Below are positions 4,169 to 51,500 of a stretch of DNA of 64,000 nucleotides, piece by piece; the first letter of the stretch is position 1; each line of letters opens with the position of its first letter. Source of the stretch: Azolla caroliniana (taxonomy: Eukaryota > Plantae > Polypodiophyta); contig JBHGNT010000007.1 in the NCBI GenBank assembly GCA_043228905.1, forward strand, positions 15,810,001 through 15,874,000, in the 5' to 3' direction. A model generated the notes under the pieces. The model was not told the DNA's origin. It worked only from the letters and a program-made list of their open reading frames with translations, and did no database searches. Both the position numbers and the translations under genes were made by a program.

Positions 4169-4178
4169 AACTCCCCCT

Positions 4179-7100: not shown

Positions 7101-8267
7101 CAATCGAACCTCCGGAACGTGTCGGACATCCTTCAGCGGCATCTTGCATCCGGTTGATGTCATCAGCCACACATCTCCTATGCCGGAAATCTGGCATGTA
7201 CCTTCATTTCCCATCCGGACACAGCCGTGCTCACCGGCTGTGTAGGATGAGAAGTATTTCTTCTCCGGGGTCAGGTGGAACGACGCTCCGGAATCGACCA
7301 CCCAGGTCATCTCTTCACCGGCAAGGTTCAATTCCCTCTCTTCGGTAATGAGCATTATCTCTTCTTCACTTGCCGCGAGTGCCGTCGTTCCTTTCCGGTC
7401 CTGCCCTCGCCGATCCGGACCTCTCCGGTCCGTGGCTCCCCGGTATGCACCGTTTCGCTCCGGTGACTTCTTCGAATCGGTACCGTCGGTTCCGTTGTCT
7501 TTCCGGAAATGCCGACAGTTCTTCTGGAAGTGCCCCGGCTTCCCACAGTAGAAGCATGTAGGTCTTCCCCTCGACTGCGACCGTGTCCCCGACTTCTCCC
7601 GTCTTTGCGGACTCCGGTTCCGTTGTCTTCCCCGTTCCGATTCGGTAAGCAGCGCCTTCGAGTCGGAGGCCGGTTCTTTATCTCTCCGACGCGCTTCTTC
7701 ATTTAGAATACTTGTCTTTACAGTTAGTAAAGACAAGTTCTCTTCCTTACAGGAGGTGCTGAGAGTAACTACCAAGTTCTCCCAGCTCTCCGGAAGGGTA
7801 CACATCAGCATGATGGCTTGCATTGCGTCATCCAACGGGAACTTGATCGCCGCAAGCTGGTTCACGAATCCCATGAACGTGCTGACGTGTTCGACCATGC
7901 TCTCACCGTCTCGGTACTTAAGATTCACTATCTTCCTCATCAGGGAGGTCCGGGTAAGAGCATTCTTCCTCTCATATAGTCCGGACAGCTTCTGCCACAT
8001 CTCATAGGCGTTCGTATCGTTCGCCACATGTTGCAGGACACTTACATCGACATATTGCCGGATCGTCGCTACGGCTTTCCGGTTCAGGAGCTTCCACTCC
8101 GACTCTATTACCCCCTTGGGTATCTCGGCATTGTCGATCGGTTCGTACAGGTCTCGGACGATGAGAAGGTCTTCCATCTTTATCTTCCAGTCGGCGTAGT
8201 TCTGTGAGTTCAACACCATCATGCCCGGAGGCCCACTACCGCCGCCTTCCATTTTCTGTGTTACCAT
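4179..8267 (-). CDS. Copia Gag-Pol polyprotein, 1362 aa (Gag, CCHC knuckle, protease, integrase, RT, RNase H)
   Basis: CFYCGKPGHFQKNC; WVVDSGASFH; LWHKRLCH..C..C; VHTDVC..DNGGEY..E; MDVKTAFLHG..LYGLKQAPRQW..YVDDML; FTDSD..EAEY..CDSQSA. Confidence 0.98.
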   Translation of the reverse strand: MVTQKMEGGGSGPPGMMVLNSQNYADWKIKMEDLLIVRDLYEPIDNAEIPKGVIESEWKLLNRKAVATIRQYVDVSVLQHVANDTNAYEMWQKLSGLYERKNALTRTSLMRKIVNLKYRDGESMVEHVSTFMGFVNQLAAIKFPLDDAMQAIMLMCTLPESWENLVVTLSTSCKEENLSLLTVKTSILNEEARRRDKEPASDSKALLTESERGRQRNRSPQRREKSGTRSQSRGRPTCFYCGKPGHFQKNCRHFRKDNGTDGTDSKKSPERNGAYRGATDRRGPDRRGQDRKGTTALAASEEEIMLITEERELNLAGEEMTWVVDSGASFHLTPEKKYFSSYTAGEHGCVRMGNEGTCQISGIGDVWLMTSTGCKMPLKDVRHVPEVRLNLISAGRLDDEGYTGSIRNCVMKFSKGSLIVARARKVNTLYLMNAWLCPEELNVAADTAGELWHKRLCHMSEKGMKRLAEDNLIPVKHVHLEKCTDCLADKQNRTSFHSRPPTRHSAPLELVHTDVCQVETKSHGGAQYFVTFIDDHSRKLWTAPLKTKDQVLCVFKELHARVERESGKKLKAIRADNGGEYRGQFKEYCRSKGIRLEFTVPKMPELNGLAERMNRTIMERVRSMLAHAKLPKGFWAEAMSTATYVINRSPSVPLDGDTPQRVWTGREVSYRHLKVFGCLAYVHVAKDRRGKLDPKTRPCIFLGYGDDEFGYRVWDPVDKKIFRSRDIIFMEDKTLADWESEKKMKSSKSTGEDQLYEEQSRPARDRLALEDPAEDGEETEPAEEDETDTGTGPDPEMDSDEEETEEPVTEAPERRYPLRERRAPRRFPEPEHVLLTDEGEPESFEEAKLDTHSRRWLSDMQEEMDSLHENHTYELVELPKGKRALRNKWVFKLKPGDAGNPPRYKARIVVKGFQQKKGVDFDEIFAPVVKMTSIRTVLSIAASMDLEVEQMDVKTAFLHGDLEEEIYMQQPEGFEKKGKEHLVCRLKKSLYGLKQAPRQWYQKFDSFMTDEGYHKTQSDHCVFVKKFEGGDFLILLLYVDDMLIVGRDQVKIRMLKKALHRTFSMKDLGPARQILGMHIIRDRKKKQLWLSQEKYVTKVLHRFNMSEARPVGSTLPATCKLSGKQSPKTKVEKEDMMKIPYASAVGSLMYAMVCTRPDIGYAVGVVSRYMSNPGKEHWNAVKWILRYLKGTSNMCLRFGSGKPELDGFTDSDMSADADTSRSTSGYVMTYAGGAVSWQSRLQKTVALSTTEAEYMAAVEAGKEIIWMKDFIRELGIRQEEYRLYCDSQSAIHLAKNAAYHSRTKHIQRRYHWIRERIEDKEFVLTKIHTDENGSDMLTKVLTPDKLEACRKRIGLERHPMPK

Positions 8268-8268
8268 C

Positions 8269-8280
8269 GCTCTGATACCA
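8269..8280 (-). promoter_or_regulatory. Primer-binding site, tRNA-iMet
   Basis: TGGTATCAGAGC on -, 3 nt from the 5' LTR; gag ATG follows 1 nt later. Confidence 0.95.
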
Positions 8281-8283
8281 CTT

Positions 8284-8953
8284 TGTTAAACACAGTGCTC
8301 GGCCACAACCGAGGAATAGGATCAACTCACAGAAAACAGGAAATACAAAATGCACGAAGACAATAGAGAGAAGAGTACACAGGATGTTTTACGTGGAAAA
8401 CCCTAAATGGGAAAAAACCACGGGAGTCCTCAAACTCCAACTATCACTATAAACAGAGATGTACAATGGTGAAGCTACAAGGCAACAACCTTGAGCTCAC
8501 TGTCTTCGCCACAGGCGGCGGTAATACACAGAGGCAACGACCTCTTCGTCTCTCTCTCTCTCACTCTCTCTCTCGGCTGCTCTCACTTCGCTCCCTCTAA
8601 GTGAAAACAGAAAAATGAGCAACAGACAGTAAACTGTTTGCCCTAAGTCATATTTATACACATATGACTTTCGGGCTATTTACAAATATAGCCTCAAGGG
8701 CCCTTGGCAAACATATTCACAAATATGTCCCCGCATCCGGATCTCTCTCCGGGTATATTCGTCATCCGGCTCCGTAGCCGGGGTCTTCATCATCCGGCTC
8801 CGTAGCCGGGGTCTTCATCATCCGGATCCGTAGCCGGGTACTCTTCATCCGGCTTCATGCCGGGTACTCTTCATCCTCCGGTTTCGTAACCGCAACCGGG
8901 CTTGCTGTCGTTCATCTCCGGACATCCCATCCGGAGGGACCGAAATCCCAACA
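8284..8953 (-). repeat. Copia 5' LTR (670 bp, carries a 28-bp tandem duplication)
   Basis: Matches the 3' LTR except ~4 substitutions and an extra ccggctccgtagccggggtcttcatcat. Confidence 0.97.
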
Positions 8954-8958
8954 AGAAG

Positions 8959-15199: not shown

Positions 15200-16940
15200 C
15201 TGTTATTGGTGCCAATCTTCTATTATTTTACACTCTTCTTTATCTTAAAGCCTTTAGGTATCAACCTACTAAGTGCCACTTCATCAGCAGAAGCATCAAA
15301 GACAGGGGTAGATGTACAAGCTTCTTGGATCGGTGGCAAGCTTGAGAGAGCAACCATGTTTTTTGCAATTGCAATACTTGTACACACATCCACAAAGGTG
15401 TTGTTGATAGTTAAATTATCACTCATCTTGGTCTCTAGATGTTGCTACTCCTCTTTGTGGGTTGTTACAGTACTCATGGTCAACTCCTCCTGGATGGTGA
15501 TAATCACCTCATTCTTAAGACCACCCTACTCCCCTTCCTGGGTGGTCTTTATTGCCCGCTTCTCATGAGTGATGCTAGTATGCTCATTGTCAGTACAATC
15601 ATACTCCTCTTCAGTACTAGTGTTAGGCAAATTGTTGTTTGTACATGTTTGCTCCTCTTTGTGGGTTGTAACAGTACTCATGGTCAACTCCTCCTCGCTC
15701 GTGATAGTCACCTCATTCTTAAGACCACCGTGCTCCCCTTCCTGGTCCGTCTTTATTGTCCGATCCTCATGGGTGATGCTAGTATGCTCATTCTCAGTAC
15801 AATTAGGCTCCTCTTTAATACAAGCAATATTCTTTCCAGACTCCTCGTGGGCTTCTTTGGACAAATTGTTGGTTGTACATGCTTGCTCCTCTTCAAATAT
15901 AAATGCTTCCTTCTTTTCACAATCCGCATGTGTGGAAGAGGTGCTTCTGGAGTTTGCCTCTGTGCAAAGAATAGTCCTAGAATTTGACTCTTCAACAGTT
16001 GTCCATATAGTTTCCGAATCGTTTGATTGTAGTTGGGAATCTACCTGCTCTTGTAACCCTAAATAGTGGGATCCCAGAGAATATCAGTATCAACTCACAT
16101 ACTCACAAGTGTGCAAACATGCTAGTAACTATAAACATAGGAGGTTAATAGCCACACTTTTACCTATTGTTACATCATCATATTGTACAACCGTAGACAA
16201 CACATTGCAAGTGGTAAGGTCATTCATCTTCTCCACAACAAATTGTTGTTCATTAGATTTAGGGATGGTGCCAATCACATGTTGGGGCTCATCACCATTT
16301 GAATCTTTCGTAATAGTATATATAGAATGCACCAAAAGCACCACTATAATAGGGTTGTTATGATCTAAATAATAATTATTTCCTTAGAGGGCTTTTGACG
16401 TGTACTTGGGAGTGTGATAAATTCTTCTTCATGATCAGGCTCTGGACTCGTATCTCCATCTCCTAAGATCCTTTCTTCATCTTCTAGTAACCCAAGTACA
16501 TGGTATTAGCCAATGCATTAGGTTCACAACTCTCTAGATAGGTGAGAACATATATGACTCACTATTGCATTCAACTATGCCTTTCTTGCCTTTTCCATAC
16601 AACTTCCTTGCAACATTCCTCTTCTTAGTGAGCTCTTTTTTATAGACATCAGACATTCAACGTACACACACAAATGAGAAATAAGATGTGAAACCACAAT
16701 TTGTGTTACCTGGATTGTTGCGATGTTGACCAGAGCTTGGGGAATTTGTTTGCAGAAGCACATGTTCCACTGCTCCAATGGCCCTTCTCATACATTCATC
16801 TTCATCATAAAACTCATAGGTTACTGGTAATGAATGTCCCTGAACCTTGGAATGTGCCAGATACCGACGGTTTAGGCACAAGAGTTGGTTGTTTCATTAG
16901 CTTCAATGGTATGGAGTTGCTTGATACCTCTCCAGTTTGT
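15200..16940 (-). pseudogene. Decayed antisense cargo gene of the second Sola2-like element (acidic, Thr/Glu-rich, contains a 204-bp in-frame tandem repeat)
   Basis: ORF pieces 15223-15426, 15526-15864, 16129-16344, 16657-16881; repeat units start ~15448 and ~15652; GT donor ~16709. Confidence 0.45.
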
Positions 16941-16989: not shown

Positions 16990-17960
16990 GTAAACATTTA
17001 GTTCCCATTGCACACAAGTAGTACTAATCGTGAAGAGATTTACTACACACCTAGTTCCCAAATTACACAACTAGTACTAATTGTGAACAATGTACTACAC
17101 ACCTAATTCCCAAATTACACAAATAGTACTAATCGTGGAAAATATACTTCCTTGTACCCATACTAATTATATATTAAGACATGTAGAGGATTCTTGATTG
17201 ACAACATAGTACAACACACCTAATTCCCAATTTATAGTGTGTACTACACTTGTACTAGGCAAGTTGTAATATAGATTGGACTAATAACTAATACAACTAA
17301 ACAACCTCATACTTTAGTACTAAAGTGCTATTTTGCACACAAGTAATACTAATTGTGAACAATGTACTACACACCTAGTTCCCATATTACACAAGTAGTA
17401 CTAATCGTTAACAATGTACTACACACCTAATTCCCAAATTACACAAATAGTACTAATCGTGGAAAATATAATTCCTTGTACCCATACTAATTATATATTA
17501 AGACATGTGGAGTATTCTTGATTGACAACATATTACTACACACCTAAATCCCAAATTATTGTGTGTACTACACTAGTACTTGGCAAGTTGTAATATATAT
17601 TGGACAAATAACTAATACAAGTAAACAACTTCCTACTTCAGTACTAAAGCATCAAGTTTGAAACAACTAAACAACAAGGAATACAATGTAATTAGTTGTC
17701 GTCAATACTAATAGTACGAATGACAAAGAGTGATTTGTAATGTAAAGATTCTGTAGTGCTAAAACTCTACAATGCATTGCACACCGGTTTCAAAATGAAG
17801 TGTGAACTATGCTAGACTTTAAGGGAAAATGATTCTAGTACTAAACGAATGACAGTCCAAATTGCAAATATGAAGTTTGCACTAAACCAGTACTAGCCCA
17901 TCACATAAATAGGGTTCCACATATTAGTTGTTGGAGAGACACTAGTACTAACCCATTGTT
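16990..17960. repeat. Tandem repeats rich in (T)AGTACT(A): ~51-bp units within a ~325-bp duplication
   Basis: tactacacacctaattcccaaattacacaaatagtactaatcgt recurs; blocks at ~17092 and ~17417 are duplicated. Confidence 0.8.
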
Positions 17961-31728: not shown

Positions 31729-32636
31729 TGTCGTAGTGTAATTCACACACTACGTGAAAAGTTACATTTTTTGTCTCTCCAGATAGGGCATGGAGTACTC
31801 GGTGAGAACCGCAAGAAGGAACCGGTAAGGACTGAAACCGGTAAGGAGACCCGGCAAAGAGCCGGATGCAGAAGGCCGGTGAGAGTCAGTGAGAAACGGA
31901 CGAAGAGATCGGGAAGGAGGTTCCGGCAAGAACCGGACAAAGAAAACTAGCAAGCACCGGATGAAGCAGAACCGGAAAGAGCCGGATGAAGAAGGCCGGT
32001 GAGAGTCTCTCACCGGATGAAGAGACATATTTGTAAATAGAAGAAAGTATAAAAACATATATTACATGCATAGGGCAAGATTCAAACCGTGCACCTCCAT
32101 GTTAATAATATTAAGCCTTATCATTATACTAGCGTATTATGAGTTTTAAAGTTATACTAAACTTTATCCCATGTAAAATTTCTAGACATGCATGGTACAA
32201 AAAGTTATTCATGCATAGACACTCGAGTAAAAAGAAAAGATGAGATAGAAAGCTAATCATGCACATGTAGTGTGCATGAAAACTAAAAATAGGAAAAGCA
32301 TGATGCTTGCATGTAATAAACTTAGACTCTTCCAACACTATATAAGGAAGAGAGAAAGATGTATAGAGGTTGTTGATTATTTTACAAGGATTTTGATCAA
32401 TCTAATATATTCGTGGGATTCATGATTTTTTTCCATCTATTTCTCTCTTACATTCTAAGTATCAATTAATACACTATACTCATGGGATTCACGAGTTTCT
32501 TATCTTCTTTCAAATATTTCTCTTTCTTGCAATCGATTCATAAGGAGCCTTATCTCATATTCTTCTTTCTCCTAGTCCAAAACCTCAGCGGTTCCCACCC
32601 GATTCACACAACGATCCAGAGCCGAAAGGCACGACA
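31729..32636 (+). repeat. Gypsy 5' LTR
   Basis: Highly similar to 48651-49511; TATA-like ctatataag ~32338. Confidence 0.95.
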
Positions 32637-32640
32637 CAAG

Positions 32641-35600: not shown

Positions 35601-38066
35601 CGATATACTGCATCGGAGACCTATATTCCGGATATAACCAATTCCAACTAGCCGTGGAGAGCCGAGACATCACTACCATGCGAACACCGATAGGATTAGT
35701 CCGGATGTGTACGCTATCACAAGGCGCGACGAACTAAGTCGCACATATGATGAATGCGATGAACAAGGTGCTCCGGGATTGCATACCGGAGATAATGATG
35801 TTCTTCCTAGATGACATTCCGATGAAAGGGTGTGCGGTGGAAGAAAAAGATGAAGCTATTGATGAACGGGGATGCCGAAGGTTCGTAGTCAACCATATCC
35901 ATGATTGTGAGAAAGTGTTACGGAAGTTAGAAGATGTGCATCTAACACTTTCCGGAGAGAAATCGGCATTCGGACAAGAAGAAATATTGGTAGTCGGACA
36001 TCTATGTGGGCCCTACGGCCGAAGACCGTCACCAACCTAGATCGATGCGATTCAAGCTATGAAAGAGGTATGCGAGTCACAATCCGAAGTTCGAAGGTTT
36101 CTTGGAGCATGTACATTCTACCACATATGGATTCCGCACTATGCACATATAGCGGACCCACTCTATCACTTGTTGCAGAAGGGTAAGAATATTGAATGGA
36201 AACCGGAGAATACCAAAGCCGTGAAGAAGCTCAAGAAATCACTACGGAGGGCAAAAGCACTAAAGAAGCCGAACTATGACCAACCGATCATAATAAATGT
36301 TGGCACAAGTCCAACCGGAATCGGATGGGTCATCAATCAAGCCAATCCGGAAGGTTCGCGATATCCGATTTGATTCGGAGCAAAGGTTCTCAACGAAAGG
36401 CAACATGGATATGCACAAGTTAAAAGAGAATTATGGGGAGTCGTGTCGGAAATCAAATCGGATCGAGATTATTTGATCAGAGCCGAAGTAGTGATCGAAA
36501 CGGATTGTCTTCCGATACTCGGGATGATGCGGTGTTGCACAATACCGGATGTGGCTATGCTAAGATGGATTGCATATGTTAAGTCACTTAATCCAGAAAA
36601 GACAACGCTGTAGCGGATATGCTATCAAGGGCGCGGTTCGGAGATGACATAACCGAATCCGATAATGAAGAAGTTTTTGAAGACTACTTTGCTTCAGAGC
36701 ACATATGCCGGGTGGACGTAATCCAAGAATTCCGGGAAGAAGAATACGAGGGAGAAAGCTTGTTGATTGTGAAAATGCTACAAGAAATCGAGGAATCATC
36801 GGACAATAAAGAGAAGAGAGCCGAGATCCGAAGTAAGAAACGGCAAGTCCGAAAGTTCTTCTTGACAAATGGATTTTTATGGAGGGAGCCGAAAAGACCG
36901 GGTGGCATACCACTTCGAGTAGTCGAGACAAAAGAGCAACGAAACCAGGTAATGTCCGAATTTCACGAATCTGATTGGGCTGGACATCGGGGAACATGGG
37001 CAACATTTGGGAAGATCAAGCAAAGATATTGGTGGAAGAATATGTACAAAGATGTCGCGAAGTTCACGGAAAGCTGCGAGAAGTGTCAAATCTACTCCAG
37101 ATTTCGACACCGAGATGAGTTACATCCAACATTCTCACCGACAATCAACTTCAAATGGATGGTCGACATTGTAGCCATGCCAACCGGGATCGGATAAAAG
37201 AAGTACTTGGTGTTAGCTCGGGAATATCTCACAAATCAAGTAGAAGGTCGGGCGCTACGAAGAAAAACGTGTTCTGTGGTATGTCAATTTCTTTTGGAAG
37301 AAGTGTTTTGCAAGTACGGGTGCGTACTAGGACAAGTGATTGCGGATCGGGGATAACTTGACTCTGATAAAGCTAGGGGATTCTTTGCCAAACATGGAGT
37401 TCTGTTAACACTAACAATGGCATATAATCCGGAAGCCAACGGGAAGGTCGAGCGAGGACATAGTCCGATCGTCAAAGCACTTGCCAAAGCATGCGACGGA
37501 AGGGTGAAGGATTGGCCGCAGATGCTTCCGTATGCACTATGGGCGGATTGGACGACGCATAGCTCCGTAACCGGTTACATGCCGGCAGAACCCATGACAG
37601 GACAAGCACCGGTAATGCCGACGGAAACCACAATCGCGACATGGACAATGCTACCATGGAAGGAAGAGATGAGCTGGGAAGAACTACTAGCGGTCCGGAT
37701 ACGACAACTGGAGGGAAGACCAGAAGACATAGCGAAAGCAATACGCCGACAACAAGAAGCGCGATTCCGGAATAAAAGCCAGTTCGACACAAAGCACCGA
37801 CTATGACCACGGAAGATTGAAGAAGGACATTGGGTGATTGTCTACAACAGTAGTTTGGATCATCAACATACAATGATGCGGAAGTTCGCGAAAAGGTGGT
37901 TCATGCCATACGAGGTTCGGAAAGTTTTCGACAACGGAAGTTACCGACTATGCGAGTTGGATGGAACAATGCTACGAGTGCCTACAGCCGGGAAACGGGT
38001 GAAGATTTTCAAGAAGTGGACTGATGAAGAACCCTATGTGATCCTAGACAAGACCGACAAGAAGGA
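32659..38066 (+). pseudogene. Gypsy gag-pol with many premature stops
   Basis: FNGKDVSCYLRDY gag; ALIDHGSEINLM protease; RWFTVPKKNGSLRFIQDLQPVN..FLDDI RT; RNase H; GHRG..C..C and AYNPEANGKVER integrase. Confidence 0.93.
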
Positions 38067-38406
38067 GGGTGAAAGCATGCGAGTGGAAACAATTAGCTAT
38101 GTCCTTGACATAGCTAATTAGCTATGCAAAAAGCTACCATTGATAAATAGTCATTTTAGTAAAAAGCCATCATTAATAAATTAAGTATGCAAAAAACTAC
38201 CATTGAAAATACTAGAGTGTTTTAATTACATATGTAAATGAGTGCCATAAATGTGCAACATAAATTGATGTGTGCACCATAAATTATATATTGAATTCCT
38301 AGGTCCATTATGCATGATCCTTTGCCACATCACGTAGGCCATCTCTAGTTGAGTACTGTGGGTTAGTTGCTACCACTGTTGCTAAACCTTATCGAGTCAA
38401 CCTGCC

Positions 38407-39150
38407 GCCACTCTACACTGAGGGGCCGCTACTGTATGTTCCAAGCATCATCAAAGAGCTGCTCAATCTGACGAGGTTCTCTTCTCTGTGACACTCTACG
38501 CTCAGGGGCCACTACTGTGCATTCCAAGCATCATCAAAGAGTTGTTCAATCTGACGGGGTTCTCTTCTCTATGCCACTCTACACTCAGGGGCCGCTAGTG
38601 TGCGTTCCAAGCATCATCAAAGAGCTGTTCAATCTGATAGGGTTCTCTTCTCTGTGCCACTCTACACTCAAGGGCCGCTACCGTGTGTTCCAAGCATCAT
38701 CAAATAGTTGTTCAATCTGACGGGGTTCTCTTCTCTGGGCCACTCTACACTCAAGGGCCGCTACCATGCGTTCCAAGCACCATCAAAGAGTTGTTCAATC
38801 TGACGGGGTTCTCTTCTCTGTGCCGCTCTACACTCAAGGGCCGCTATCGTGCGTTCCAAGCATCATCAAAGAGTTGTTCAATCTGACGGGGTTCTCTTCT
38901 CTTTGCCACTCTACACTCAGGGGCCGCTACTGTGCGTTCCAAGCATCATTGGTAACTGTTTAATCTGACGGGGTTCTCTTCTCTGTGCCACTCTACACTC
39001 AGGGGCCGCTACTGTGCGTTCCAAGCATCATTGGTAACTGTTGAATCTGACGAGGTTCTCTTCTCTGTGCTACTCTACTCTCAGGTGCCTTCTATGTGCG
39101 TTCCAAGCATCATCGGTAACTGTTCAATCTGACGGGGTTCTCTCCTCCAT
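38407..39150 (+). repeat. 83-bp tandem repeat, ~9 copies, upstream of the transposase
   Basis: gccactctacactcaggggccgctactgtgcgttccaagcatcatcaaagagttgttcaatctgacggggttctcttctctgt with period 83. Confidence 0.95.
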
Positions 39151-39475
39151 TGCCATCATTCTATACTCAGTTGCCGCTACTGTCCAGTCTCGGATTGCTT
39201 CCACATTTCGATTTGACGGAGTTCACTCATCCAACGGCAACATTCTACACTCAATTGTCGCCATTGGTCGGTCTTGGATCGCCTCCTCAACTGTTCAATC
39301 CAACGGAGTGAACTCCTCTACTGTTCGGTCTTGGATTGCAATAACTTTTCTGTCTATTGATTATCTTGTGTATTGTTGTGTCTAATCTTGTGTATTGTGG
39401 AATATTTTTGTGTATTGTCGTTGTCCATAGCCATCTTAAATACTTGTTTTTTTTCTGGAAATTTAGGGTTTTAAC

Positions 39476-42400
39476 ATGTCCAGCCAAATGGAAGGGGAAG
39501 AAGGGTGTTTAGAATTACCCCTCAATGATCATAAGGATAGGGATGATGCTATCAGGACACAACAAGCCATACGAAACTATTGGGCAGAAAAAAAGAGGAA
39601 ACATCGTCAATTGTTGAAAGATACGAAAGCCACACTCAGTAAAGGTAAGGATAGTTTAGCTGAGAATGTAAGTAATGCGACTACCATCATAGAGAGAAAG
39701 GTTGTAGACTATTTCAATGTTCAAACCAAGCACATCAGCAATGAAGAAAAGAAGGTAGTACTTTATGGAATATGTAATGATCCATCGATAAAGGACTTAG
39801 TTGATTGTGATGGTCTTAATGCAAACATATCATCTATTTTAGTAAATAATCTTCGTAATAGTTTCGTATCCATGAGCAGGTCAGAAGATGATCTTGTCTT
39901 AAAAGGGTCTAGTCTAATGATGTTACTTAATAGTGACGTTGATGATATAAACATCAGTGAGCTATCTAAGGTAATTGGTGTTAGTAGAAAAACAGTGTAC
40001 AATACAATGAACCGTATAATTTCCTCGGGTGAAGGAACTAGTCTACTAAAGCTAACTACAAGATGTAAGCCAATGACACCCATAACATTTGAAATCAAGG
40101 ATGTAATCACAATGTTTTTGACCTAATGAGAGTAAGGTTTCACCCAATAAAAAGGATTTATGCAGGAACCGTGTTGGAAGAAATCAATACGAGGAGCATC
40201 CCATTCATCTTCTTGATGTACCTCAGGTATTTACATTTATCTCAACATTTGTTTTGACTCTACACGGAAAGTTAATTAGCTCAGTTAGCAGAAAAGCTAA
40301 TTAGCTTATCAGTTACATTTACCTCAATTAGCTACTAGGATAGCTACTACATAGGTAACTGGCTACTCTCAATAGCTACTACCATGATAGCTAATTAGCT
40401 ATTCTCAATAGTTAATTTAGGTACTACCAGATAATTAGCTGTACTGGTAGCTAGTTAGCTATCATGGTAGCTAGTTAGCTATTTCTTTATTACCAGCTAA
40501 TTAGCTACTAGGAAAGCTAATTAGCTACCATGATAGCTAATTAGTTACTAGGACAGCTAATTAGCCACCATGATAGCTAATTAGCTACTAGACCCGCTAA
40601 TTAGCTATTATGATAGCTAATTAGCTACTGGACCAACTAATTAGCTACTAGACCAGCTAATTAGCTACCATGATAGCTAATTAGTTACTAGGAAAGCTAA
40701 TTAGCTACTAGACCAGCTAATTAGCTACCATGATAGCTAATTACCTACTAGAATAGCTAATTAGCTACTAGGACAGCTAATTAGCTACCATGATAGCTAA
40801 TTACCTACTAGAATAGCTAATAAGCTACTAGGATAGCTAATTAGCTACTAGAATAGCTAATTAGCTACTAGGATAGTTAGCTAGTTACGAGAATAACTAA
40901 TTCCCCTTTATTACGCAGGTCGATTTATTTATTAGGTTCAAATGAATGCATCCAACTATCAAAGTTCAACTACGAAAATTCGAGTCTCTTAAGCCACACT
41001 TTGTGAGACACTTAAAGGATCGATACACATGTTGCATTTACCATGTACATATGGGTTTTTTGAAGGACTCTGTTAATCTACGTCACCATAGCGCATCCCT
41101 AACTAATACAGTTTGCACAAGTGGGTGCCCAATCTGTCGATCAAGCCCGCAAGAGGAGTGTAAATCATCTGAGCACGTTATCTCTTCCATGAGTTATTTA
41201 TTAGATTCAATATTGTGTCCGAGAGAAACTGACGCTATCTTCCATATTCATAAATGTGTCATGGGTTTATGTCAAGATTGTGGCCCTACTAGATTTAGTT
41301 GGTGTCCAAATGAATTGAGTAGTGAAATATTGATCTCTGTGAAGTTCTTTGAGTCAGTGAACACCAATTTCGAAGGAAAGGTGTGTAAAAGAAAGGATCT
41401 AGTTCGGAAGATGCTTAAACCAAGGGATTTGGTGTCTCTGTTTGTAGTATCTCTAGGAAAGTTCATTAAACACAACTTCATTTATTCATGGCAGGCCCAT
41501 CAGTTTAAGACTTGCATATCTGATTTCCCAAATGATGTAGTAGTCTCAGTAGTAGATTTCGCAGAGAATTATACTTTCAAGTAGCAGAATGAAATTCAAT
41601 CTATGCATTGGTGTTCAGTTCAGGTAACCATTTTTGTGCACATAACATATTTTCGAGTTTCAGGTGATGTTAAAAAAGTAATTCATTTCTTTATTTCCGA
41701 TGATAAGAAGCATGATACCTTGTTCGTCGAACACTGTTTTAAGTTACATTGGCAGTGGTTATTAGCTCAATGTTTGGAGCTTACTCAACATTGGGTCTGG
41801 TCTGACGGAGCTGCGTCACAATTCAAGGCTCGATGTCCATTTTATTTTGTGGGGAGGTATCCTACCATAACAGGTTTGGAGATGAGATGGAAATTTTTTG
41901 GGTCTGGCCATGGTAAAGGTGAACATGATGGTGCAGGGGCTGTTATAAAGCGGGCACTTACCCATGAACAACTAAAGACAGATGGTGTGCACATGAATTG
42001 TGCATCACATGTAGTTGAATTTTTAAGAACAAATATATCAACGAGTGCCACAGGTGTTTACTCCTCGCAAGTCCGAGATATCAAACGTGAATTTTGGGAA
42101 GTGAAGATAGATGAAGTAAATAGGGAGAAGACCTGGGAGTGCCAAGGAATTCCCGAATTGCGATCTCTGCATGCTATTCGCGGTTATTCCAGGTTGGATG
42201 GTCATTGTATTGCGGTTAGAGAATTGACTTGTTTTTGCTTCCATTGTGTGCAGGGAAATTGGAGATATTGTCTAAAAAAAGCATACATTCAGAATTGGGA
42301 GTATCACACTCTGAATGATAAGGAAGCAGTTGATAGAGAAACAGGGCAGAATGCTGACTTCACATATGAGGGACTTGGAGATACTTTGAGTGATGTCCTG

Positions 42401-42754
42401 AACGTTGGGGATAACTTCGATGTAAATGTTGAAGAAGGCAATTCAGAGGGTGTTGATTTCTATATATTAAAGTGCACGGTTAGTAAACAGTGTGCAAGGC
42501 AGAATATTGTAGATACATGGGGAAATTTTGTATCTGCCGGGACATTCTACATCGAAGGCATTTTTTATGCAAAACTAGATGACTACGAATATGTGTACAG
42601 GCTGTTAGAAGACAAACCAGCGGCGTACATGTACTCTCATTTGGTCAGGTGCATCAACGTCCCAATGTCAGAATACAATAGCTGCTCAGGTTTATACACT
42701 GTTGGTGCTAATGTGTATGAATGTATTTACAATAGTATGCCATGGAATTTGTAG
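39476..42754 (+). pseudogene. Sola2-like DDD transposase; exons 39476-40226 and 40919-42754; frameshift ~40120, stops at 40943 and 41582
   Basis: CAG|GT...GCAG|G intron; Cys-rich region; VDFAENYTFK*QNEIQSMHW..QVT; catalytic triad motifs; C-terminal CFCFHC. Confidence 0.9.
40270..40890. repeat. Intronic array of palindrome TAGCTAATTAGCTA (~20-bp period)
   Basis: Directly visible, lies within intron 40227-40918. Confidence 0.95.
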
Positions 42755-43102
42755 CTACAAGTAACACTTACCATGTTCTCTTGTAAAACAAACATGTATT
42801 TCGCGAAAACAGTTAAATAAATTCGTTTGAGAATCAATTTCTTGTATACAGTTTGCTTTCTGTGCTTCTTTCTCAATAAAATCATGTCTTTTTTGTTAAG
42901 TTTTAAGTTATAAGTTATAACGAAATAGTCATCAGTAGCTAATTAGTTGTACAAATGCAGCTAATTAGCTGTCAATAGCTAAATAGTCATCAATAGCATG
43001 AAATCAACAATCTGCAACATATTCCTCAAATTACACAGTAGATAAGTACAGTGGGAACAAGTAATTAAATTCTTCATTGAATAATGTCATCTCTTTACAT
43101 AT

Positions 43103-44146
43103 TTATAAATTACCATTGGAAATGTCTACAAATCTCCTATAAACAGCTAAGCTCTTGCTAGTTAGTGGAACGAGTCTACATATATTATCTGCATATCGAG
43201 CTTGGTATGGAGTCCACAACCATGCACCTAGTTGGCAGCTCACTGTTTGCACCAGGTACTGTTCAGGCATTTCCTCGGGTAGAATGAGACAGCATCTCCG
43301 AATATTGAAGTAGTGCCGGAAATGTTCTGTATCCAAAATCAATGTATTGTCGGCATTATATTCAGGCCAAGTAGCCCAAAAATCAGAAAGTCTCTTGAAT
43401 CCTGCAGCTTCCATTTGCTCACAATTTCCTCGTGCCCATTGACCTTTAAAACGACTTCGCCATTTTGGGAAGAGTCTTGCCAAACACTTCCACACATCTG
43501 ATTTTGGTTTTTCACTCCAAATAAACAAATCAAAGTATTGCACAGCCCACTCTAGAAACTGATTTGCGTCCCTCCTTGGTTGCATATATCTCACACTCAT
43601 CAAGACTTTATCAAGCTCCAAGATCAAGGCTCTTCTTTCGACTTCTAGTGGTTTAGGTTTCCATTCCTGAAACTGAGCCGCTATTACACCATTTTCTGGT
43701 AGGATACGATCAATCTTAATCAGCTCAGGTTCGGCCGACACAACTGGCATCCTTTTCCTCTTCAAACCCCTAGTCGACTGTGTTGGGCCTGGCTTCACAT
43801 TCTGGTGCTCTTGTTTTGTCGACTTAGTTATCAATCCTTGGATTACCTCGGTGCATGTAGCTACTGATCTGCTCGATATCAGTCCACTGGTATCACATGC
43901 TGCATCTACCTGCAACACCAAGTCACCCGTGCAACATGCTTGATCAACTTGTGTGACCAGATCACTTGTATCAGTTGCTACATCTACTTTCAAGATGGGG
44001 CCCTTTAAACATGCCGCAACATCAACAGTATCCACACTGCCATTGGCCTTACGAGCAATAGAATCAAACCCTTTAGACTCTACAACATCAGAAAACACCA
44101 ACATATTCACACTCACAAAGTAACTAACAGTCTCACAAACAACATC
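43103..44146 (-). CDS. FCP1/NIF-like (HAD superfamily) CTD-phosphatase-domain protein with degenerate catalytic motif; possible 27-nt first exon 44287-44261
   Basis: RALILELDKVL..PRRDANQFLEWAVQYFDLFIWS..W...C..FKRLSDFW..PEYNADNTLILD..N....ILP follows the NIF/FCP1 motif order; open frame; acceptor ttcag at 44147. Confidence 0.75.
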   Translation of the reverse strand, partial: DVVCETVSYFVSVNMLVFSDVVESKGFDSIARKANGSVDTVDVAACLKGPILKVDVATDTSDLVTQVDQACCTGDLVLQVDAACDTSGLISSRSVATCTEVIQGLITKSTKQEHQNVKPGPTQSTRGLKRKRMPVVSAEPELIKIDRILPENGVIAAQFQEWKPKPLEVERRALILELDKVLMSVRYMQPRRDANQFLEWAVQYFDLFIWSEKPKSDVWKCLARLFPKWRSRFKGQWARGNCEQMEAAGFKRLSDFWATWPEYNADNTLILDTEHFRHYFNIRRCCLILPEEMPEQYLVQTVSCQLGAWLWTPYQARYADNICRLVPLTSKSLAVYRRFVDISNGNL

Positions 44147-44327
44147 CTGAACATCAAAGAGTTTCAGTCATAGAACAACACTCTTCAAATTATCTTGGAA
44201 AAACATCATAGAGTTCCATTACATAATGTGGATCAAGCAACAACCAATCTGAGGTTTTACTTGTCCAACAGGATAGTAAAACTTCATAAAACCCTAGCAA
44301 AATCCCTAAGCTAACAATCATATCCAA

Positions 44328-47300
44328 CTAAATAGTATTTCGCTCCACTACGTCTGGGCCCCTTGACCGAGTAACTGCTCTTGTTCCCGATTGTGGCCCC
44401 TTCTTCAGCCTTTTTTTGGTCGGTTTCCCTTTTAGCCTTGCTTCTTTCACCCAATGCGCAAGTGTGTCCTCCTCCGACAACCTTCCCATCACCTCAGCAG
44501 CTAATTGCACATCAGCCGTTTCTTGAACTAGCTTTTCAAGTATAGAGGGATCTATTTGGACATTTTCAGTAGTTGGGCTCGGTGGGGTGGAATCAAGGTC
44601 TTGAGATTCGAAGAAATGTTGCATCAAGTGTTCATAAACACTGTTGTTGTGAACCTCAGTTTTACATGTTGTTTCCACTATTTCATGGCATTTCACATCG
44701 TTGCCTAATTCAGTACACTGTTCCAAAAGAATAGGGTGGAGCTGATCTGATGGAGATGTGATAGCAGGACTCTTACTTTCAACCACGTTGGCAGTAGTAT
44801 CCTCATCTGTTGCAGTGTCATCAGCACCAGACACATCATGTGCCGTCCTTAATCCACAAGATTCTACAATAACATGGCAGCTATTTAGGATAGCTAATTA
44901 GCTACTTTACTAAACTATGGTAGAAGCTAGGATAGCTAATTAGCTAGTACGATAGCTAATTAGCTAGTATGATAGCTAATTAGCTAGTACGATAGCTAAT
45001 TAGCTACTTTACTCAACTATGGTAGTAGCTATGGTAGCTAATTAGCTACTTTACTCAACTATGGTAGTAGCTAGGATAGCTAATTAATTAGCTACTTTAC
45101 TCAACTATGGTAGTAGCTAGGATAGCTAATTAATTAGCTACTTTACTCAACTATGGTAGTAGCTAGGATAGCTAATTAGCTACTTTACTCAACGATGGTA
45201 GTAGCTAGGATAGCTAATTAGCTACTTTACTCAACTATGGTAGTAGCTAGGATAGCTAATTAGCTACTTTACTCAACTATGGTAGTAGCTAGGATAGCTA
45301 ATTAGCTACTTTACTAACTCTGGTAGTAGCTAGGATAGCTAGTTAGCTACTTTACTAACTATGGTAGTAGCTAGGATAGCTAATTAGCTACTAGGATAGC
45401 TAATTAGCTACAATGATAGCTAATTAGCTACTTTCTCAACTATGTAGTAGCTAGGATAGCTTATTAGCTACTAGGATAGCTAATTAGCTGCCAGTAGCTA
45501 ATTAGCTACTAGGATAGCTTATTAGCTACTTACACAACTATGGCAGTAGCTAATTCGCTACTATGATAGCTAATTAGCTAGTAGGATAGCTAATTAGCTA
45601 CTAGGATAGCTAATTAGCTAGTAGGATAGATAATTAGTTGCCAGTAGCTAATTAGCTTTTTTACACAACTATTGTACTAGCTAATTAGCTAGTACCATAG
45701 CTAATTAGCTACTAGGATAGCTAATTAGTTGCTAGGAGCTAATTAGCTACTAGGATAGCTTATTAGCTACTTTACACAACTATGGCAGTAGCTAATTAGC
45801 TAGTAGGATAGCTAATTAGCTACTAGGATAGCTAATTAGTTGCCCGTAGCTAATTAGCTAGTAGCATAGCTAATTAGCTTTTTTACACAACTATGGTACT
45901 AGCTAATTAGCTAGTACCATAGCTAATTAGGTACTAAGATAGCTAATTAGCTGCCAGTAGCTAATTAGCTAGTAGGATAGCTAATTAGAAAAGACTAAGC
46001 TTATTAGCTACAGTATGGTATACCTGTTAGTTTTCTCCACTCATTTGGTAGAGCTGTACTGCAATCTCCCAAACAGAATGCAGCAATTCGACAGGCATGC
46101 TCAAAACAAAGCAGATGGTATGTGTGGTTGCATGGTTGTAGGTGAACCAACAAAGACGCAATTTTGTCCTCCACACCCAACCCGCAAGCGATGCAACGTG
46201 CTTGAACTGTCAATAAATCATTTTCTGGTTCTGCTTCATTTGGTAAGGGAGCAAGAATGTTCAGGTCCAAATCCTGTTTGGTCCTTACCATTTCCTCCAC
46301 AAAATGTAGCTGCTTCTTAAGGCAGCTAACTCCCTGTTCTTGATGAATGTATTGTTCCTTCAACGCAACAGAAAAATTTACCGATTAATTATTCCTGTTG
46401 TTGAAAGATACACCAACTTTGGTCAGGAATCGTTAACTTACTTGAAGCTTATCCAAATTGTAATTTGTAACAGTATTTACACCTAGAAGGTCCAGGTTCA
46501 TTGAAAGAACCTGGATCTCTATTTCCAGTTGTATTTTACGATGGGGATCCAGTGGCCCCTCTAATTCAAGCTCCTATTGTGGAACCTATTCCAGATAATG
46601 CTTGATTAGCACATTTTACCCTTAAAGTTAATCACATACCAGCAAAACAATAGTTACCTGAATCTTATTTCTAATCGTTGTAACAGCGGAAGCAACTTTG
46701 CTCTCCATTGTAGAAGCCATTGTGGCTTTCTCTAAATCAGTCTCAAAAAATGCCAATGTCTCACAGGCTTCATGGAAATTTTTTTGCATATAGCTAACCA
46801 ATGTCTCACCTGTATCATTGACATTGGCTTTCCTTGGGTGTCGGTGTGGTGTATGCCCCTGGTCTTGCTGGGAGTCGGCAGTTGCATCAACAACTGCCAT
46901 GCTCCAAAATCTGTCTATTTTTTGTGCCAAGGTCCCCATCTTTCGGCATCTTTTTACCGATGCCTCACCATAGACTGCCCAAGCTACCCTATACATTTCA
47001 GGGTCTCTAGATTCCTTCGTTGTTTTGCAATACTCATATGCAAATGCTCTAGAAAATGAAACTGACAACTCATTGTTGACTGGGATCTCCTGATGAACTT
47101 TCTGGTGCAGTCTCATGCAGTCATCGTACAAGTCGGCTCGTACATGCTTCAGCTTGACCTTGCCTTTGACTCTAGGCACTGTATATACTGTCATCCAGTC
47201 TACATCACTGATCAATTTATCACTTAGGACAGCAGGGTCAACACCCTCGAGTGACAGACCATTGGTGTTGTGGAAGTCCTCCTTTGTCTTGCAAAATTTT

Positions 47301-48005
47301 GCGAAGTTTAGCACTCTAGTATATGGAGGAACGAGCCATCTGAAATATCATTTCAGAAATCAGAAATAGTGCAAAATCAGAATATGTGAGAATCAGAAAC
47401 CCCAATCAACAACAACAAAAATGGTGCAAAATCTTTAACTTAGCAAATCATAAACCCTAATCATAATTGGTATTCAGAAATTTGAAATCAGAAACCCTAA
47501 TCAAAATCTGTAATCAGAAACCCTAATCAAAATTTGTAATCAGAAGTTTGTAACCAGAAACCTTATTCAGAAATTCTAATCAGAAATTTATAATCAAAAA
47601 CCCTAATCAGAAATTTCAATCAGAAACCCTAATCAGAAATTTCAATCACAAACCCTAATCAGAAATCCTAAACAGAAATTTATAAACAAAAACCCTATTC
47701 AGAAATTCTAATCTGTAATCAAAATTTGTAACCAGAAACCCTATTCAGAAATTCTAATCAGAAATTTATAATAAAAAACCCTAATCAGAAATTTCAATCA
47801 CAAACCCTAATCAGAAATTTCAATCACAAACCCTAATCAGAAATTTCAATCACAAACCCTAATTAGAAATTCTAATCAGAAATTTATAAACAAAAACCCT
47901 AATCAGAAATTTCAATCAGAAACCCCAATCATCACTAAAGACAGGATTAAACACAAAAAAAGTAATATAAACACACCTGTTGCTACTCCCCGATTTGCGA
48001 GACAT
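44328..48005 (-). CDS. Five-exon RING-finger protein, ~570 aa (exons 48005-47977, 47339-46658, 46573-46442, 46357-46024, 44863-44328)
   Basis: All introns GT-AG. Exon lengths 29+682+132+334+536=1713 nt join in frame with no internal stop. RING-like CIAC..PCNHTYHLLC..C..C; acidic tail and basic NLS-like KGKPTKKRLKK. Confidence 0.75.
44878..46010. repeat. Intronic array of TAGCTAATTAGCTA (20-bp units and a 42-bp higher-order unit)
   Basis: Fills predicted intron 44864-46023. Confidence 0.95.
47380..47930. repeat. Intronic tandem repeat (~13/26-bp units) containing telo-box AAACCCTAA
   Basis: cagaaaccctaatcagaaatttcaat repeated; within predicted intron 47340-47976. Confidence 0.9.
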
Positions 48006-48650
48006 CCTTGTATGGGACTCCAAGGACTTCGCCCTATTCGATTTTGGGGAAATATGAATCGACACCAAAGTTCAGACAGTAGTCAAAAAGAAAAAACAAA
48101 TGTTTGGGGTTTCTGTAACTGAAACATACCTGGACGATGATCGAGCGGGTTCTGTGTTGTAGCTCTCAATCTACAATGTCGATTTTTTGCTGTTGCGAGA
48201 GCTACGTCTGCGTTCGTGCTCTGAGTACTCCATCTGCGTTCAAAATCAGACTTAGGCTAAACAGGAAATTGATGACATTGAAGTCGACCTTAGATGATGG
48301 TGTTATTCCCCAAGTTCCACTACGTCTGAAACAGAAGTTCAAATATTTGAGTTTTTTCATAAATTAGTTTTTCAAATATTTGATTTTCCCACAAAAAAGA
48401 CTAGCTAAACAAATAGCTAATTAGCTATGGCCATTTTAGTAGCTAATTAGCTATAATAGTGTTTCCACTCGCATGCTTTTACCTAGGAGCAATCGAACGA
48501 AGATCGCGGTGATGCGGAAAGTGAAGAGAGTGGATTAGAACTCATAGTCGACTTAAGGGGAGAATCGGAGGAAGCTTCGGATGAAGGTGAATAGCAAGCA
48601 TCGGGGACATCGGCACATACCGGAGGATGTGCAGGTTAGGAGGGGGCGAG

Positions 48651-49511
48651 TGTCGTAGTGTAATTCACACACTACGTGAAAAATTACATTTTTTGTCTCT
48701 CCGGATAGGGCATGGAGTACCCGGTGAGAACCGGAAGAAGGAACCGGTAAGGAGACCCGTCAAAGAGCCGGATGAAGAAGTCCGGTGAGAGTCGGTGAGA
48801 AACGGACGAAGAGATCAGTAAGGAGTTCCCGGCAAGAACCGGACAAAGAAAACTAGCAAGCACCGGATGAAGCAGAACCGGAAAGATCCGGATGAAGAGA
48901 CATATTTGTAAATAGAAGAAAGTATAAAAATATATATTACATGCATAGGGCAAGATTCGAACCTTGCACCTCCATGTTAATAATTTTAAGCCTTATCATT
49001 ATACTAGCGTATTATGAATTTTAAAGTTATACTAAACTTTATCCCATGTAAAATTTCTAGACATGCATGGTACAAAAAGTTATTCATGCATAGACACTCG
49101 AATAAAAAGAAAAGATGAGATAGAAAGCTAATCATGCACATGTAGTGTGCATGAAAACTAAAAATAGGAAAAGCATGATGCTTGCATGTAATAAACTTAG
49201 ACTCTTCCAACACTATATAAGGAAGAGAGAAATATGTATAGAGGTTGTTGATTATTTTCCAAGGATTTTGATCAATCTAATATATTCGTGGGATTCACGA
49301 TTTTTTTCCATCTATTTCTCTCTTACATTCTAAGTATCAATTAATACACTATACTCGTGGGATTCACGAGTTTCTTTTCTTCTTTCAAATATTTCTCTTT
49401 CTTGCAATCAATTCATAAGGAGCCTTATCTCATATTCTTCTTTCTCCTAGTCCAAAACCTCAGCGGTTCCCACCCGACTCACACAACGATCCGGAGCCGA
49501 AAGGCACGACA
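48651..49511 (+). repeat. Gypsy 3' LTR
   Basis: Matches 31729-32636; preceded by PPT. Confidence 0.95.
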
Positions 49512-51500
49512 CCGACATGTCCAATGGGGTGAGTGATATCATCTCTGGTCTCGACATAGCCAGGTCGATCCGTCTCTCATAGGTCTCGGACCTATTCTTG
49601 ATGAAACTTCATATGGTTGGATGCATCGGAGTCAACAAACCATACATCTTCCGAATTAGAGATGTTGGTCGGGCCGAAGGCCGACATAGAGTTCGCTCTA
49701 TGTCTCATTGCAAACAATCCACCATAGTCGTTGTATTCGGAGTTGGTGGCATAATTGGTGAGTTGTCAGCTTCTAGAAACCGACTCACTCTTCTTCTTTC
49801 GACACTCCTCTTCATGGTCGCTGATTTTGCCACAATATCTATAGTTGATGAGGTTGTTTTGTCAGCTTGGTCCGGCATGGAAGTTCCCCCTTCTTTTGAA
49901 CATTCCTCTTGAGTTTCCACCGTCTTGCCGGTAATGGGATTTGTTTTCATAGGTCAAACCTACTCCACCTCATCCTTCCGAATCAGCTCCTTCTTGCACA
50001 ACCACATCCTCTTCTTATGTCTGAGTGTGTGTAGAGCATGTGGCCTTCTGAGGCATTGCTCTTCGTTCAAACATGATTTTCTTCAACCAATAACATTGAT
50101 TGAAGATCAAAGGAAGAGGGCAGATTCTCTCTTGCTAGAACGACGGTTCTCATTGCTCCGAATCGTGGTGCAAGGTTGCCTAGGCATATTTGCACCATTT
50201 CATCATCTTCCACATTGACGCTTATTGAGCCGAGTAGATCACAAAGCTTCTTCATCTTCACGGTGTAGCTTGTGATGGACATGCCCCTTTGTTGGACATT
50301 GTTCAACTACCAACGCCAACTACCAATGCCCTCTCATACCATGTAAATAATTAGCTAGAGTAATTATGTTAACCAGATAGGTTATGTGTGTGTGTGTGTG
50401 TGTGTGTGAAGATACACAAGATAGATAGAAGATTGATACAAGGTAAAAGACTCAAATGTATATTAACATGGAATAAGAGAATAAAATAGAGAAACAACGA
50501 AGTACCAGGTACTTTATATAAAGCCACCCTCTCTGTACATTCTCTCATTACAACACCCACACTCTCTCTAGAAATTATAGAAGCTCATGTTTCCTGGGGA
50601 ATGTGGAAACTCATTAGTTATGTGTCATAGAACACATAGTTAATGTTGGAGAGTAGTGGTAACCTTTGACCTTTAACTACTCATACATTCTCAAAAGGTG
50701 TTCACACATTAAACTGGGTTGAGTTGGATTCTCAACAAAGTTCTACTCATGAACTTATCTTCTCCATTTTTCCTTTTCTTTTTCTTCTTCGCCTGAAAAA
50801 CATGAGGTCTTAGGGTTTTATTTTCTTCTTCTTCATGAATTTTAGGGTTCTTCATTCTTGTTTTTCTTCTGAAAATTATCACCGTTGTAAACATTTACCC
50901 CAAAATCTTGTAAACCCTATTTTATAAGGGAATTTCTTTCTTAATCCAACGATTTGAGCCTACAAACTAGTGAATCTACACTTAATGGGTTAACAACATA
51001 TTTCAATCTTAACCTCTCATATATATATTTGTTCACCTTTTACTTCCCTTCAACTCTGCTTTACCTTCGACTGTACTTTGCCTTCGACTCTAGCAGTTCA
51101 AACATGCCTTACCTTCAACTCTACCTTAGCTTCGAATCTACCTAAAATTCTACTCTAACATACCTTCGACTCTGGAGAACGTTCCACTCTAACAAGCCTT
51201 TGGGTCTGAAGAGCCTTTGAGTTTGAAGATTTTTCAATTCTAGTGACCTTTCGACTCTTGAGAGCTTTCAACTTTGAAGAGCCTTCTATTCACCCATCAT
51301 CTTCAGTTCAAGTTCCCAGTGGTCCTGCTCAGATTTCAAATGCACACATGTAACTTTGCAACAATGTATCTGGAAATTTCCTTGTAGTTTGAAGCCTATG
51401 CCAAAAGGCAACAACCTTACTAGTTCTCGACAGACACAAATAATGTTCGTACTATCTGCCATGGGATAGATCTCAAATGAGACTCCCATCAGCCAATCGA

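Follow-up and report, generated by a model that had tools for sequence, protein, structure and literature searches.

The 64,000-nucleotide window analysed here, from the fern Azolla caroliniana (assembly GCA_043228905.1, contig JBHGNT010000007.1, positions 15,810,001 to 15,874,000 of the forward strand), carries at 38067-48484 a dead copy, 10,418 bp long, of a repeated cut-and-paste DNA transposon, whose assignment to Sola2 is supported by its transposase motifs and a 4-bp target site duplication (TSD). Downstream of the transposase and on the opposite strand lies an accessory gene predicted to encode, in this order, a helical domain, a coil, a RING finger, an acidic tail and, in some families, an FCP1-like fold. 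As judged from sequence, the position and domain order of this gene are fixed across distant relatives of the element and its N-terminal exon is under purifying selection in the one testable pair; within a close clade, short motifs specific to each family, in the window the palindrome TAGCTAATTAGCTA, stand at the same non-coding places. Our tentative proposal is that the accessory protein acts at the arrayed motif of its own family and keeps the copies of the element active, a reading that we infer to be only slightly ahead of one in which the transposase binds the arrays.

The accessory gene and its domains

Related loci (L numbers) were the best 80 of the 434 stretches with a transposase relative found in a scan of metagenome contigs; predicted proteins carry P numbers. 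All splice sites of the accessory gene are predictions, and on the minus strand of the window its parts are arranged as follows.

47977..48005, minus strand: predicted first coding exon with the ATG, in frame with the next exon (prediction only)
47340..47976, minus strand: predicted intron with an AT-rich 13-bp array, without the palindrome
46658..47339, minus strand: exon with an unclassified helical domain of ~140 amino acids (46898-47338) and the start of the coil
46443..46612, minus strand: probable coil exon with two in-frame stops in the window copy; approximate boundaries, placed by translation and by conservation with L016
46024..46357, minus strand: exon with the end of the coil and a RING-H2-like finger; eight ligand positions identified by inspection
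44864..46023, minus strand: predicted GT-AG intron, phase-compatible, with 43 copies of the palindrome
44328..44863, minus strand: acidic exon that continues the frame of the RING exon and is closed by a K/R-rich tail and a stop; similar exons in L002, L003 and L005
43103..44079, minus strand: FCP1-like (Pfam NIF) coding exon, which also has a linker and a K/R patch; its motif I is ELDKV; relatives 72-96% identical

The most widely conserved part is the N-terminal domain at 46898-47338, which the first-pass annotation of the window had overlooked. It has 131 relatives at E up to 0.001, including 31 of at least 400 amino acids, 10 with a similar RING, 6 with NIF and 4 with both; species names were available for 12 of the 25 relatives looked up and all 12 are Adiantum. 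The domain is modelled as mainly helical (pLDDT 91, pTM 0.85). It has no match in Pfam, a fold search returned nothing at E up to 0.001 among PDB or viral models, the best Z among 48,161 chains was 2.4, which is no fold match, and a profile search against PDB sequences gave coiled-coil matches only. Matches in the atlas are unnamed fungal clusters with a low recognition score, and thus a weak lead. The RING finger follows the pattern C-x2-C, C-x-H-x2-H-x2-C, C-x3-C, with all eight zinc ligand positions occupied in the window, and its exon scores under the Pfam cut-offs (E 0.12-0.4). The acidic exons are otherwise unalignable, yet they have in common a stretch D-x-[PT]-L-x-x-[WF] directly before the K/R tail, a possible protein-binding motif (window 44440-44490, L002 7110-7601, L003 4283-4588, L005 4148-4729). 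In an internally deleted relative, L016 1-3160, the transposase core is followed without a break by the N-terminal exons of the accessory gene and by the right end; its accessory exon is ~72% identical to that of the window.

Conservation and selection

Profiles for the N-terminal domain, the RING and NIF match 16 of the 80 related loci and none of the reversed decoys. All 16 matches lie downstream of the transposase on the opposite strand, and in L039 and L061/L064 the RING is nearer to the transposase and the N-terminal domain farther away, in the same order as in the window. Coordinates were entered for 40 loci, 24 of which have at least 4 kb downstream of the transposase; half of these (12/24, or 10/18 after near-identical loci are merged) contain a match. 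Of the two profiles for the N-terminal domain, one started from L018 and L020 and was iterated over the same loci, and its E-values are not independent; it is tied to the domain of the window by a profile-profile comparison of the near and distant versions (probability 96.6%, E 6.6e-10). The position of the gene is kept beside transposases down to 31-40% identity. In a quick tree of 72 rows, built solely from the relatives found in this analysis, the NIF-bearing loci occupy three branches within a single 10-row clade (support 98), and matches to the N-terminal domain or RING are scattered over the distant half.

Between the window and L016 the ratio of nonsynonymous to synonymous substitution (dN/dS) is 0.29 for the N-terminal domain (95% interval 0.19-0.50, 141 codons) and 0.42 for the coil (0.22-0.73, 79 codons); as a control, the transposases of the window and L001 give 0.29. 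The pair L001-L004 (0.35) was set aside with a probably frameshifted alignment, and L001-L002 as saturated. Given the fixed position and strand in related loci together with the dN/dS values, the sequences argue that this accessory gene is under selection and lineage-wide, NIF being an optional module of later date, which bears out the first-pass annotation in its view of the cargo as an accessory module of the element's lineage. Two points count against this conclusion. The dN/dS estimates come from one pair of decayed copies, the sole testable one, and cover the domain and the coil. In addition, the long distant loci yielded no complete pair of ends with a TSD around the accessory gene; in L041 (13/13) and L055 (10/13) a single end-like sequence lies beyond it.

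If the RING and FCP1-like parts were host genes captured in the manner of Pack elements and drifting neutrally, one would expect domains that are common in plant genes, as both are, and decay such as the stops in one accessory exon of the window copy. This origin is nevertheless very improbable, given a strand, position and order that are fixed beside transposases down to 31-40% identity and a dN/dS well below 1, which already contradicts it for the N-terminal exon. Open NIF frames moreover fall into four clusters of 4-25 members with 72-96% identity, and no named single-copy host gene is found among the 25 relatives of the N-terminal domain that were looked up.

Family-specific motif arrays

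The palindrome TAGCTAATTAGCTA has 57 matches with at most one mismatch in the window, all within the element, against 0.01 expected. With up to two mismatches there are 71 inside the element, one outside and none in exons: one at the left end, 23 in the transposase intron, two in the gap between transposase and accessory gene, 43 in the accessory intron and two at the right end. The spacing is 20 bp in 38 of the 70 gaps. The first-pass annotation had placed the palindrome at both subtermini, in two introns and between the convergent genes, and had described the long non-coding stretches as tandem arrays. It is present at all these places, in the gap only with two mismatches, and the arrays exist, but two of the four in the element, with units of 83 bp (38407-39183) and 13 bp (47445-47931), lack the palindrome. 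The features outside the introns are these.

38407..39183, plus strand: tandem array of an 83-bp unit, 9.3 copies, upstream of the transposase
42936..42971, no strand: between the two convergent genes, a pair of degenerate palindromes with two mismatches each
48414..48453, no strand: two exact palindromes at the right subterminus

In both of two DNA runs position 42972 is joined back to 42720 (depth 1,694 and 4,813), which suggests a subfamily in which the stretch separating the convergent genes, its two palindromes included, is tandemly duplicated.

Close families array other motifs: GGTAATTA in L002 (25 copies), ACCATTAA in L003 (31), AGGTGAAA in L006 (20), AGTACCAA in L007 and L008 (18 and 19) and TTAGTACT in L026 (24). 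Several of these are not palindromes. The motif of each family has at most five copies in any other family tested, so that the family specificity claimed for the arrays from the window alone has held. The transposase intron of every close family holds an array of that family's own motif, and in most families the motif is arrayed directly behind the transposase as well. L003 repeats the layout of the window, with its motif in the transposase intron and behind the transposase, at the left end, and, in an intron of the accessory gene, upstream of the acidic exon. Among 24 sequences examined, a clustered motif is clear in 10 (the window and nine close loci), moderate in three (L014, L018, L061) and absent from 11.

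Which protein may act at the arrays

On the reading that we tentatively prefer, the N-terminal domain of the accessory protein would read the family motif, and the coil would form oligomers fitted to sites ~20 bp apart. The RING may then bring ubiquitin transfer to chromatin or silencing factors at the motif sites, while the FCP1-like fold, lacking its catalytic motif, would serve as a phosphoprotein-binding module and not as an enzyme. Bound to its motif, the protein would keep copies transcribed and mobile, a role of the anti-silencing kind that the first-pass annotation had considered possible. A broader version, which we regard as rather unlikely as a whole, holds that Sola2 elements of land plants possess an ancient, independently evolved self-activation system, comprising a DNA-binding domain of new fold that co-evolves with the arrays, a ubiquitin ligase and, in ferns, a pseudophosphatase that binds the polymerase tail, the latter two being brought by the domain to the chromatin of the element itself.

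A number of observations weigh against a role of the accessory protein at the arrays. No known DNA-binding fold is present in its N-terminal domain, where a net charge of +6 is the sole hint of such binding, and the transposase has a weak helix-turn-helix that fits the transposase as binder. The motif is also found 25-70 nt from both element ends, and the arrayed octamer of L006 equals the first bases of its terminal repeat at 7/8 positions. Of the 11 sequences without a clustered motif, seven carry the accessory domain or RING (L020, L030, L031, L039, L041, L054, L055); L070 is arrayless as well.

A slightly less probable alternative is that the transposase binds the motif through a variable N-terminal helix-turn-helix. 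The subterminal sites would then serve end pairing and the intronic arrays self-activation, with the accessory protein, like MURB for MURA, as a transposition cofactor whose RING may time, stabilise, degrade or target the transposase. The motifs at both subtermini and the near identity of the L006 motif with its own terminal octamer fit such a binder. So does the transposase's N-terminal part, which between close families is 25-41% identical as against 45-60% for the catalytic part. It has predicted helices (160-167 and 171-184), and its fold matches are weak and mostly to helix-turn-helix regulators, none of them significant (model pLDDT 64). There are also precedents: AtMu1 transposase alone activates cognate copies (bioRxiv 10.64898/2026.08.24.746577), and MURA binds MURB (PMC12973397). 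Against a transposase binder stand the numbers and the places: two introns hold 66 of the 71 palindromes, far above the need of end recognition, and 43 of these, in the accessory gene, are 2.5-3.6 kb away from the nearest end. The helix-turn-helix score itself (Pfam HTH_11, 23.1 bits) is under the cut-off of 25.

Alternatively, the accessory gene may be selected for a job unrelated to the arrays, such as tethering insertion to chromatin marks by way of protein contacts, and the arrays may be functionless products of slippage from a subterminal seed. The many distant loci that keep the accessory domain without a clear array, and the two arrays of the element that lack the motif, would be accommodated by this explanation. 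We consider it quite unlikely, since one motif recurs at four or five distinct places of the window, and likewise of L003, and switches jointly at all of them between families, a coordination that slippage alone would not produce.

The FCP1-like fold: one gene or two

The NIF domain (PF03031) scores 30.6 bits in the window against a Pfam cut-off of 21.8, all its atlas matches are NIF, and it is above the cut-off in L005, L006, P0063 and P0116 as well. Active enzymes of the FCP1/SCP type carry the catalytic motif DxDx(T/V). The element thus has the Pfam NIF domain in common with the FCP1/SCP-type phosphatases of the HAD class, with the catalytic motif replaced: motif I is ELDKV or a close variant in 28 records of the family of the window and DLNG or DLNN in seven relatives, so that none of the 35 records with a detectable motif I has DxDx(T/V). 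With this motif missing, the fold is likely to be a pseudophosphatase. The ubiquitin ligase and phosphatase-fold protein suggested by the first-pass annotation are therefore recognisable as domains, through eight RING ligands and a NIF match above cut-off, whereas a working phosphatase is not.

The same annotation had counted two separate convergent cargo genes. We find this less likely; more probably the RING and FCP1-like parts belong to one transcription unit, possibly with two splice forms. Four of the 131 relatives of the N-terminal domain combine it with RING and NIF in one predicted protein (P0063, P0095, P0116 and P0124, all Adiantum nelumboides models), and in L005 a canonical phase-1 intron of 262 nt joins the acidic exon to the NIF exon in an open frame. 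The NIF acceptor of the window, at 44080, is a phase-1 site whose sequence in most copies is TTGCAG; inside the acidic exon a candidate donor of the same phase, at 44776, would join to NIF to give an open RING-NIF frame. Other details favour two genes. L002 and L003 stop the accessory gene after the acidic exon, without NIF, and in the window that exon has its own stop and no phase-1 donor near its end, 44776 being the sole strong one. The NIF frame has an ATG of its own near 44107, and the four three-domain proteins are automatic gene models, some obviously misjoined. No splice joint was seen in the runs presumed to be RNA, which yielded few contigs. A phase-0 join of 44351 to 44147 was discarded, its acceptor being lost in one run and 1-nt insertions being common directly after it.

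Transposase and Sola2 assignment

The transposase is encoded on the plus strand in two exons.

39476..40226, plus strand: transposase exon 1 with the weak helix-turn-helix; frameshift at 40122 by comparison with L001
40227..40918, plus strand: predicted GT-AG intron with 23 copies of the palindrome; removal of the same intron from L001 leaves an open frame, and its position is common to related loci
40919..42754, plus strand: transposase exon 2, which encodes the DDD core and is broken by premature stops at 40943 and 41582

The DFAENY, SDG and HGKG-D motifs reported by the first-pass annotation are present in this plus-strand DDD enzyme, the last as GHGKGEHD, but the frame is not intact: one extra base at 40122 and two stops show that the window copy is dead. 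In L001, a metagenome contig of the same family, a splice at the same place gives an open transposase of 863 amino acids, and most of 14 aligned loci share the residue at which exon 1 ends; P0133 is likewise open and 93-94% identical to the transposase of the window. Named relatives come from Klebsormidium, Riccia, Adiantum, Cryptomeria and Taxus. The Sola2 motif series was matched by eye between our transposase alignment and the published one, and DFAENY, QxEIQSxHW, SDGAxxQFK and HGKGxxDG follow in the same order in both (PMC3627910 Additional file 10). This series and the 4-bp TSD back the Sola2 assignment made from the window alone.

Three further observations concern related transposases. 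In one clade (L045-L050, L057-L060, L063, L065, L066, L069, L076-L079) the genes are apparently intronless, the frame running through the shared intron position; these loci have no match to the accessory gene and their contigs are short. P0001 of Klebsormidium nitens combines a Sola2-type transposase and leucine-rich repeats in one predicted chain, which may be a misjoined gene model. In L026/L027 a second element end with a TTAGTACT array breaks the transposase, which looks like one Sola nested in another.

Element ends, insertion site and copies

The element is inserted close to where the integrase gene ends in a Gypsy retrotransposon, whose long terminal repeats (LTRs) were found by self-BLAST and are identical at 835 of 862 ungapped columns.

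31729..32637, plus strand: 5' LTR of the host Gypsy retrotransposon, paired with 48651-49512
38063..38066, no strand: left TSD AGGA; the empty site gives the integrase frame back
38067..38091, plus strand: left terminal inverted repeat, starting GGGTG; similar starts in L002, L003, L006, L016 and L041
38095..38124, no strand: subterminal hairpin with an ATGTC-nnn-GACAT core, running into the first palindrome at 38111; similar hairpins in L003 and L002
48460..48484, minus strand: right terminal inverted repeat; L016 ends at the matching place with GGGT
48485..48488, no strand: right TSD AGGA
48651..49512, plus strand: 3' LTR of the host Gypsy element

The 10.4-kb unit of the first-pass annotation is sound: the terminal inverted repeats of 25 bp agree at 23 positions, AGGA stands on either flank, and excision in silico of the element with one AGGA regains the open frame of the interrupted integrase. 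The boundary and the 4-bp TSD are fixed by related ends of the GGGT..AGCATG type, which start at the expected places in L002, L003, L006, L016 and L041, the right end of L016 included; a 5-bp TSD (AGGAG) was discarded, as these ends begin GGGT where a 4-bp TSD results. Sola2 termini follow a GRG rule. The GRG end noted earlier holds on the left, which begins GGG as in L002, L003, L006 and L041, and not on the right, which is AGGTA (AGG) in the window copy and GGG in L016.

In the two DNA runs 4,173 and 3,297 contigs map to 40930-44870 and cover all 30 bins of transposase and accessory gene. Summed contig depth, which is not a copy number, is ~10,000-32,000 and 19,000-94,000, and the longest single contigs have depths of 4-28 and 38-75. 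We read this only as showing many diverged copies of the element, in which the depth of transposase and accessory gene is of the same order. Prokaryote genomes did not contain the terminal repeat, nor viral contigs the transposase. Elsewhere in the window, an apparently young Copia-like element at 3527-8954 has LTRs (3527-4169, 8284-8954) that are 95% identical and an open frame of 1,368 amino acids on the minus strand (4182-8285), and tandem arrays at 17008-17649 and 15448-15815 have units of 52 bp (324-bp higher order) and 204 bp.

Relation to known systems

Plant Sola2 elements of similar size and end sequence are already catalogued, so the first-pass suggestion of an undescribed plant Sola2 lineage is not supported. 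Table S2 of PMC12973397 gives four plant Sola clusters from mosses and a fern, of 9.9-11.2 kb with 4-bp TSDs, three of them with GGGTG ends; a preprint on the genome of the conifer Cupressus names Sola2 as the most abundant DNA transposon superfamily there (bioRxiv 10.64898/2026.07.23.736688), and a plant Sola2 from Physcomitrella is in print (PMC10741241). The element of the window resembles the moss and fern rows in its 4-bp TSD, short terminal repeats starting GGGTG and size of 10-11 kb. The supplement of PMC12973397 describes no such gene for these clusters, Sola being named in those four rows alone and not in the domain table. A conserved accessory protein of plant Sola2 is apparently undescribed: no account was found in the literature, with PMC9387920, PMC11928520 and 10.1101/2021.09.26.461848 adding nothing, though Repbase, the 2009 paper that defined Sola and the full cluster sequences may hold one.

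The arrangement parallels that of the VANDAL elements of Arabidopsis, in which an accessory gene, VANC, is likewise carried within the element and family-specific short motifs stand in tandem in introns and other non-coding parts (PMC5735166). VANDAL elements encode a Mutator transposase, in contrast to the Sola2-type enzyme here, and the motif of the window is also subterminal. Binding and demethylation have been demonstrated for VANC (PMC5735166), whereas here the function is a candidate drawn from sequence. Searches of Pfam, PDB sequences and folds found no similarity of the N-terminal domain to VANC, an absence that does not exclude membership of the family. RING and FCP1-like domains are not known to form part of VANC.

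TnpA of Spm/CACTA and MURB of MuDR are, like the accessory protein, second element-encoded proteins beside a transposase. TnpA is a sequence-specific regulator with tandem helix-turn-helix motifs derived from the transposase, and MURB is a transposase partner (bioRxiv 10.64898/2026.08.24.746577; PMC12973397); unlike TnpA, the accessory N-terminal domain matches no solved fold in the searches run. Within Sola, an amoebozoan Sola2 carries Fanzor1 (PMC3627910), and Sola1-1_Ec32 of Ectocarpus carries on the opposite strand a ParB-methyltransferase proposed to modify the element's own DNA (PMC12477816). These share with the present element a conserved second gene, in Ectocarpus also its strand, but the genes are unrelated and the window element has no nuclease or methyltransferase domain.

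Implications

Sequence-specific anti-silencing by transposon proteins has been shown for few families, all of them in flowering plants, and how VANC removes silencing remains open. A conserved accessory protein with a RING and a candidate site, in an unrelated superfamily, offers a directly testable system in seed-free plants. If the self-activation reading is true, this would be the first transposon anti-silencing protein to act through ubiquitin. Should the binder prove to be the transposase, the gene still stands as an undescribed standard component of plant Sola2 elements, and it explains many 'hypothetical proteins' of fern annotations as transposon cargo.

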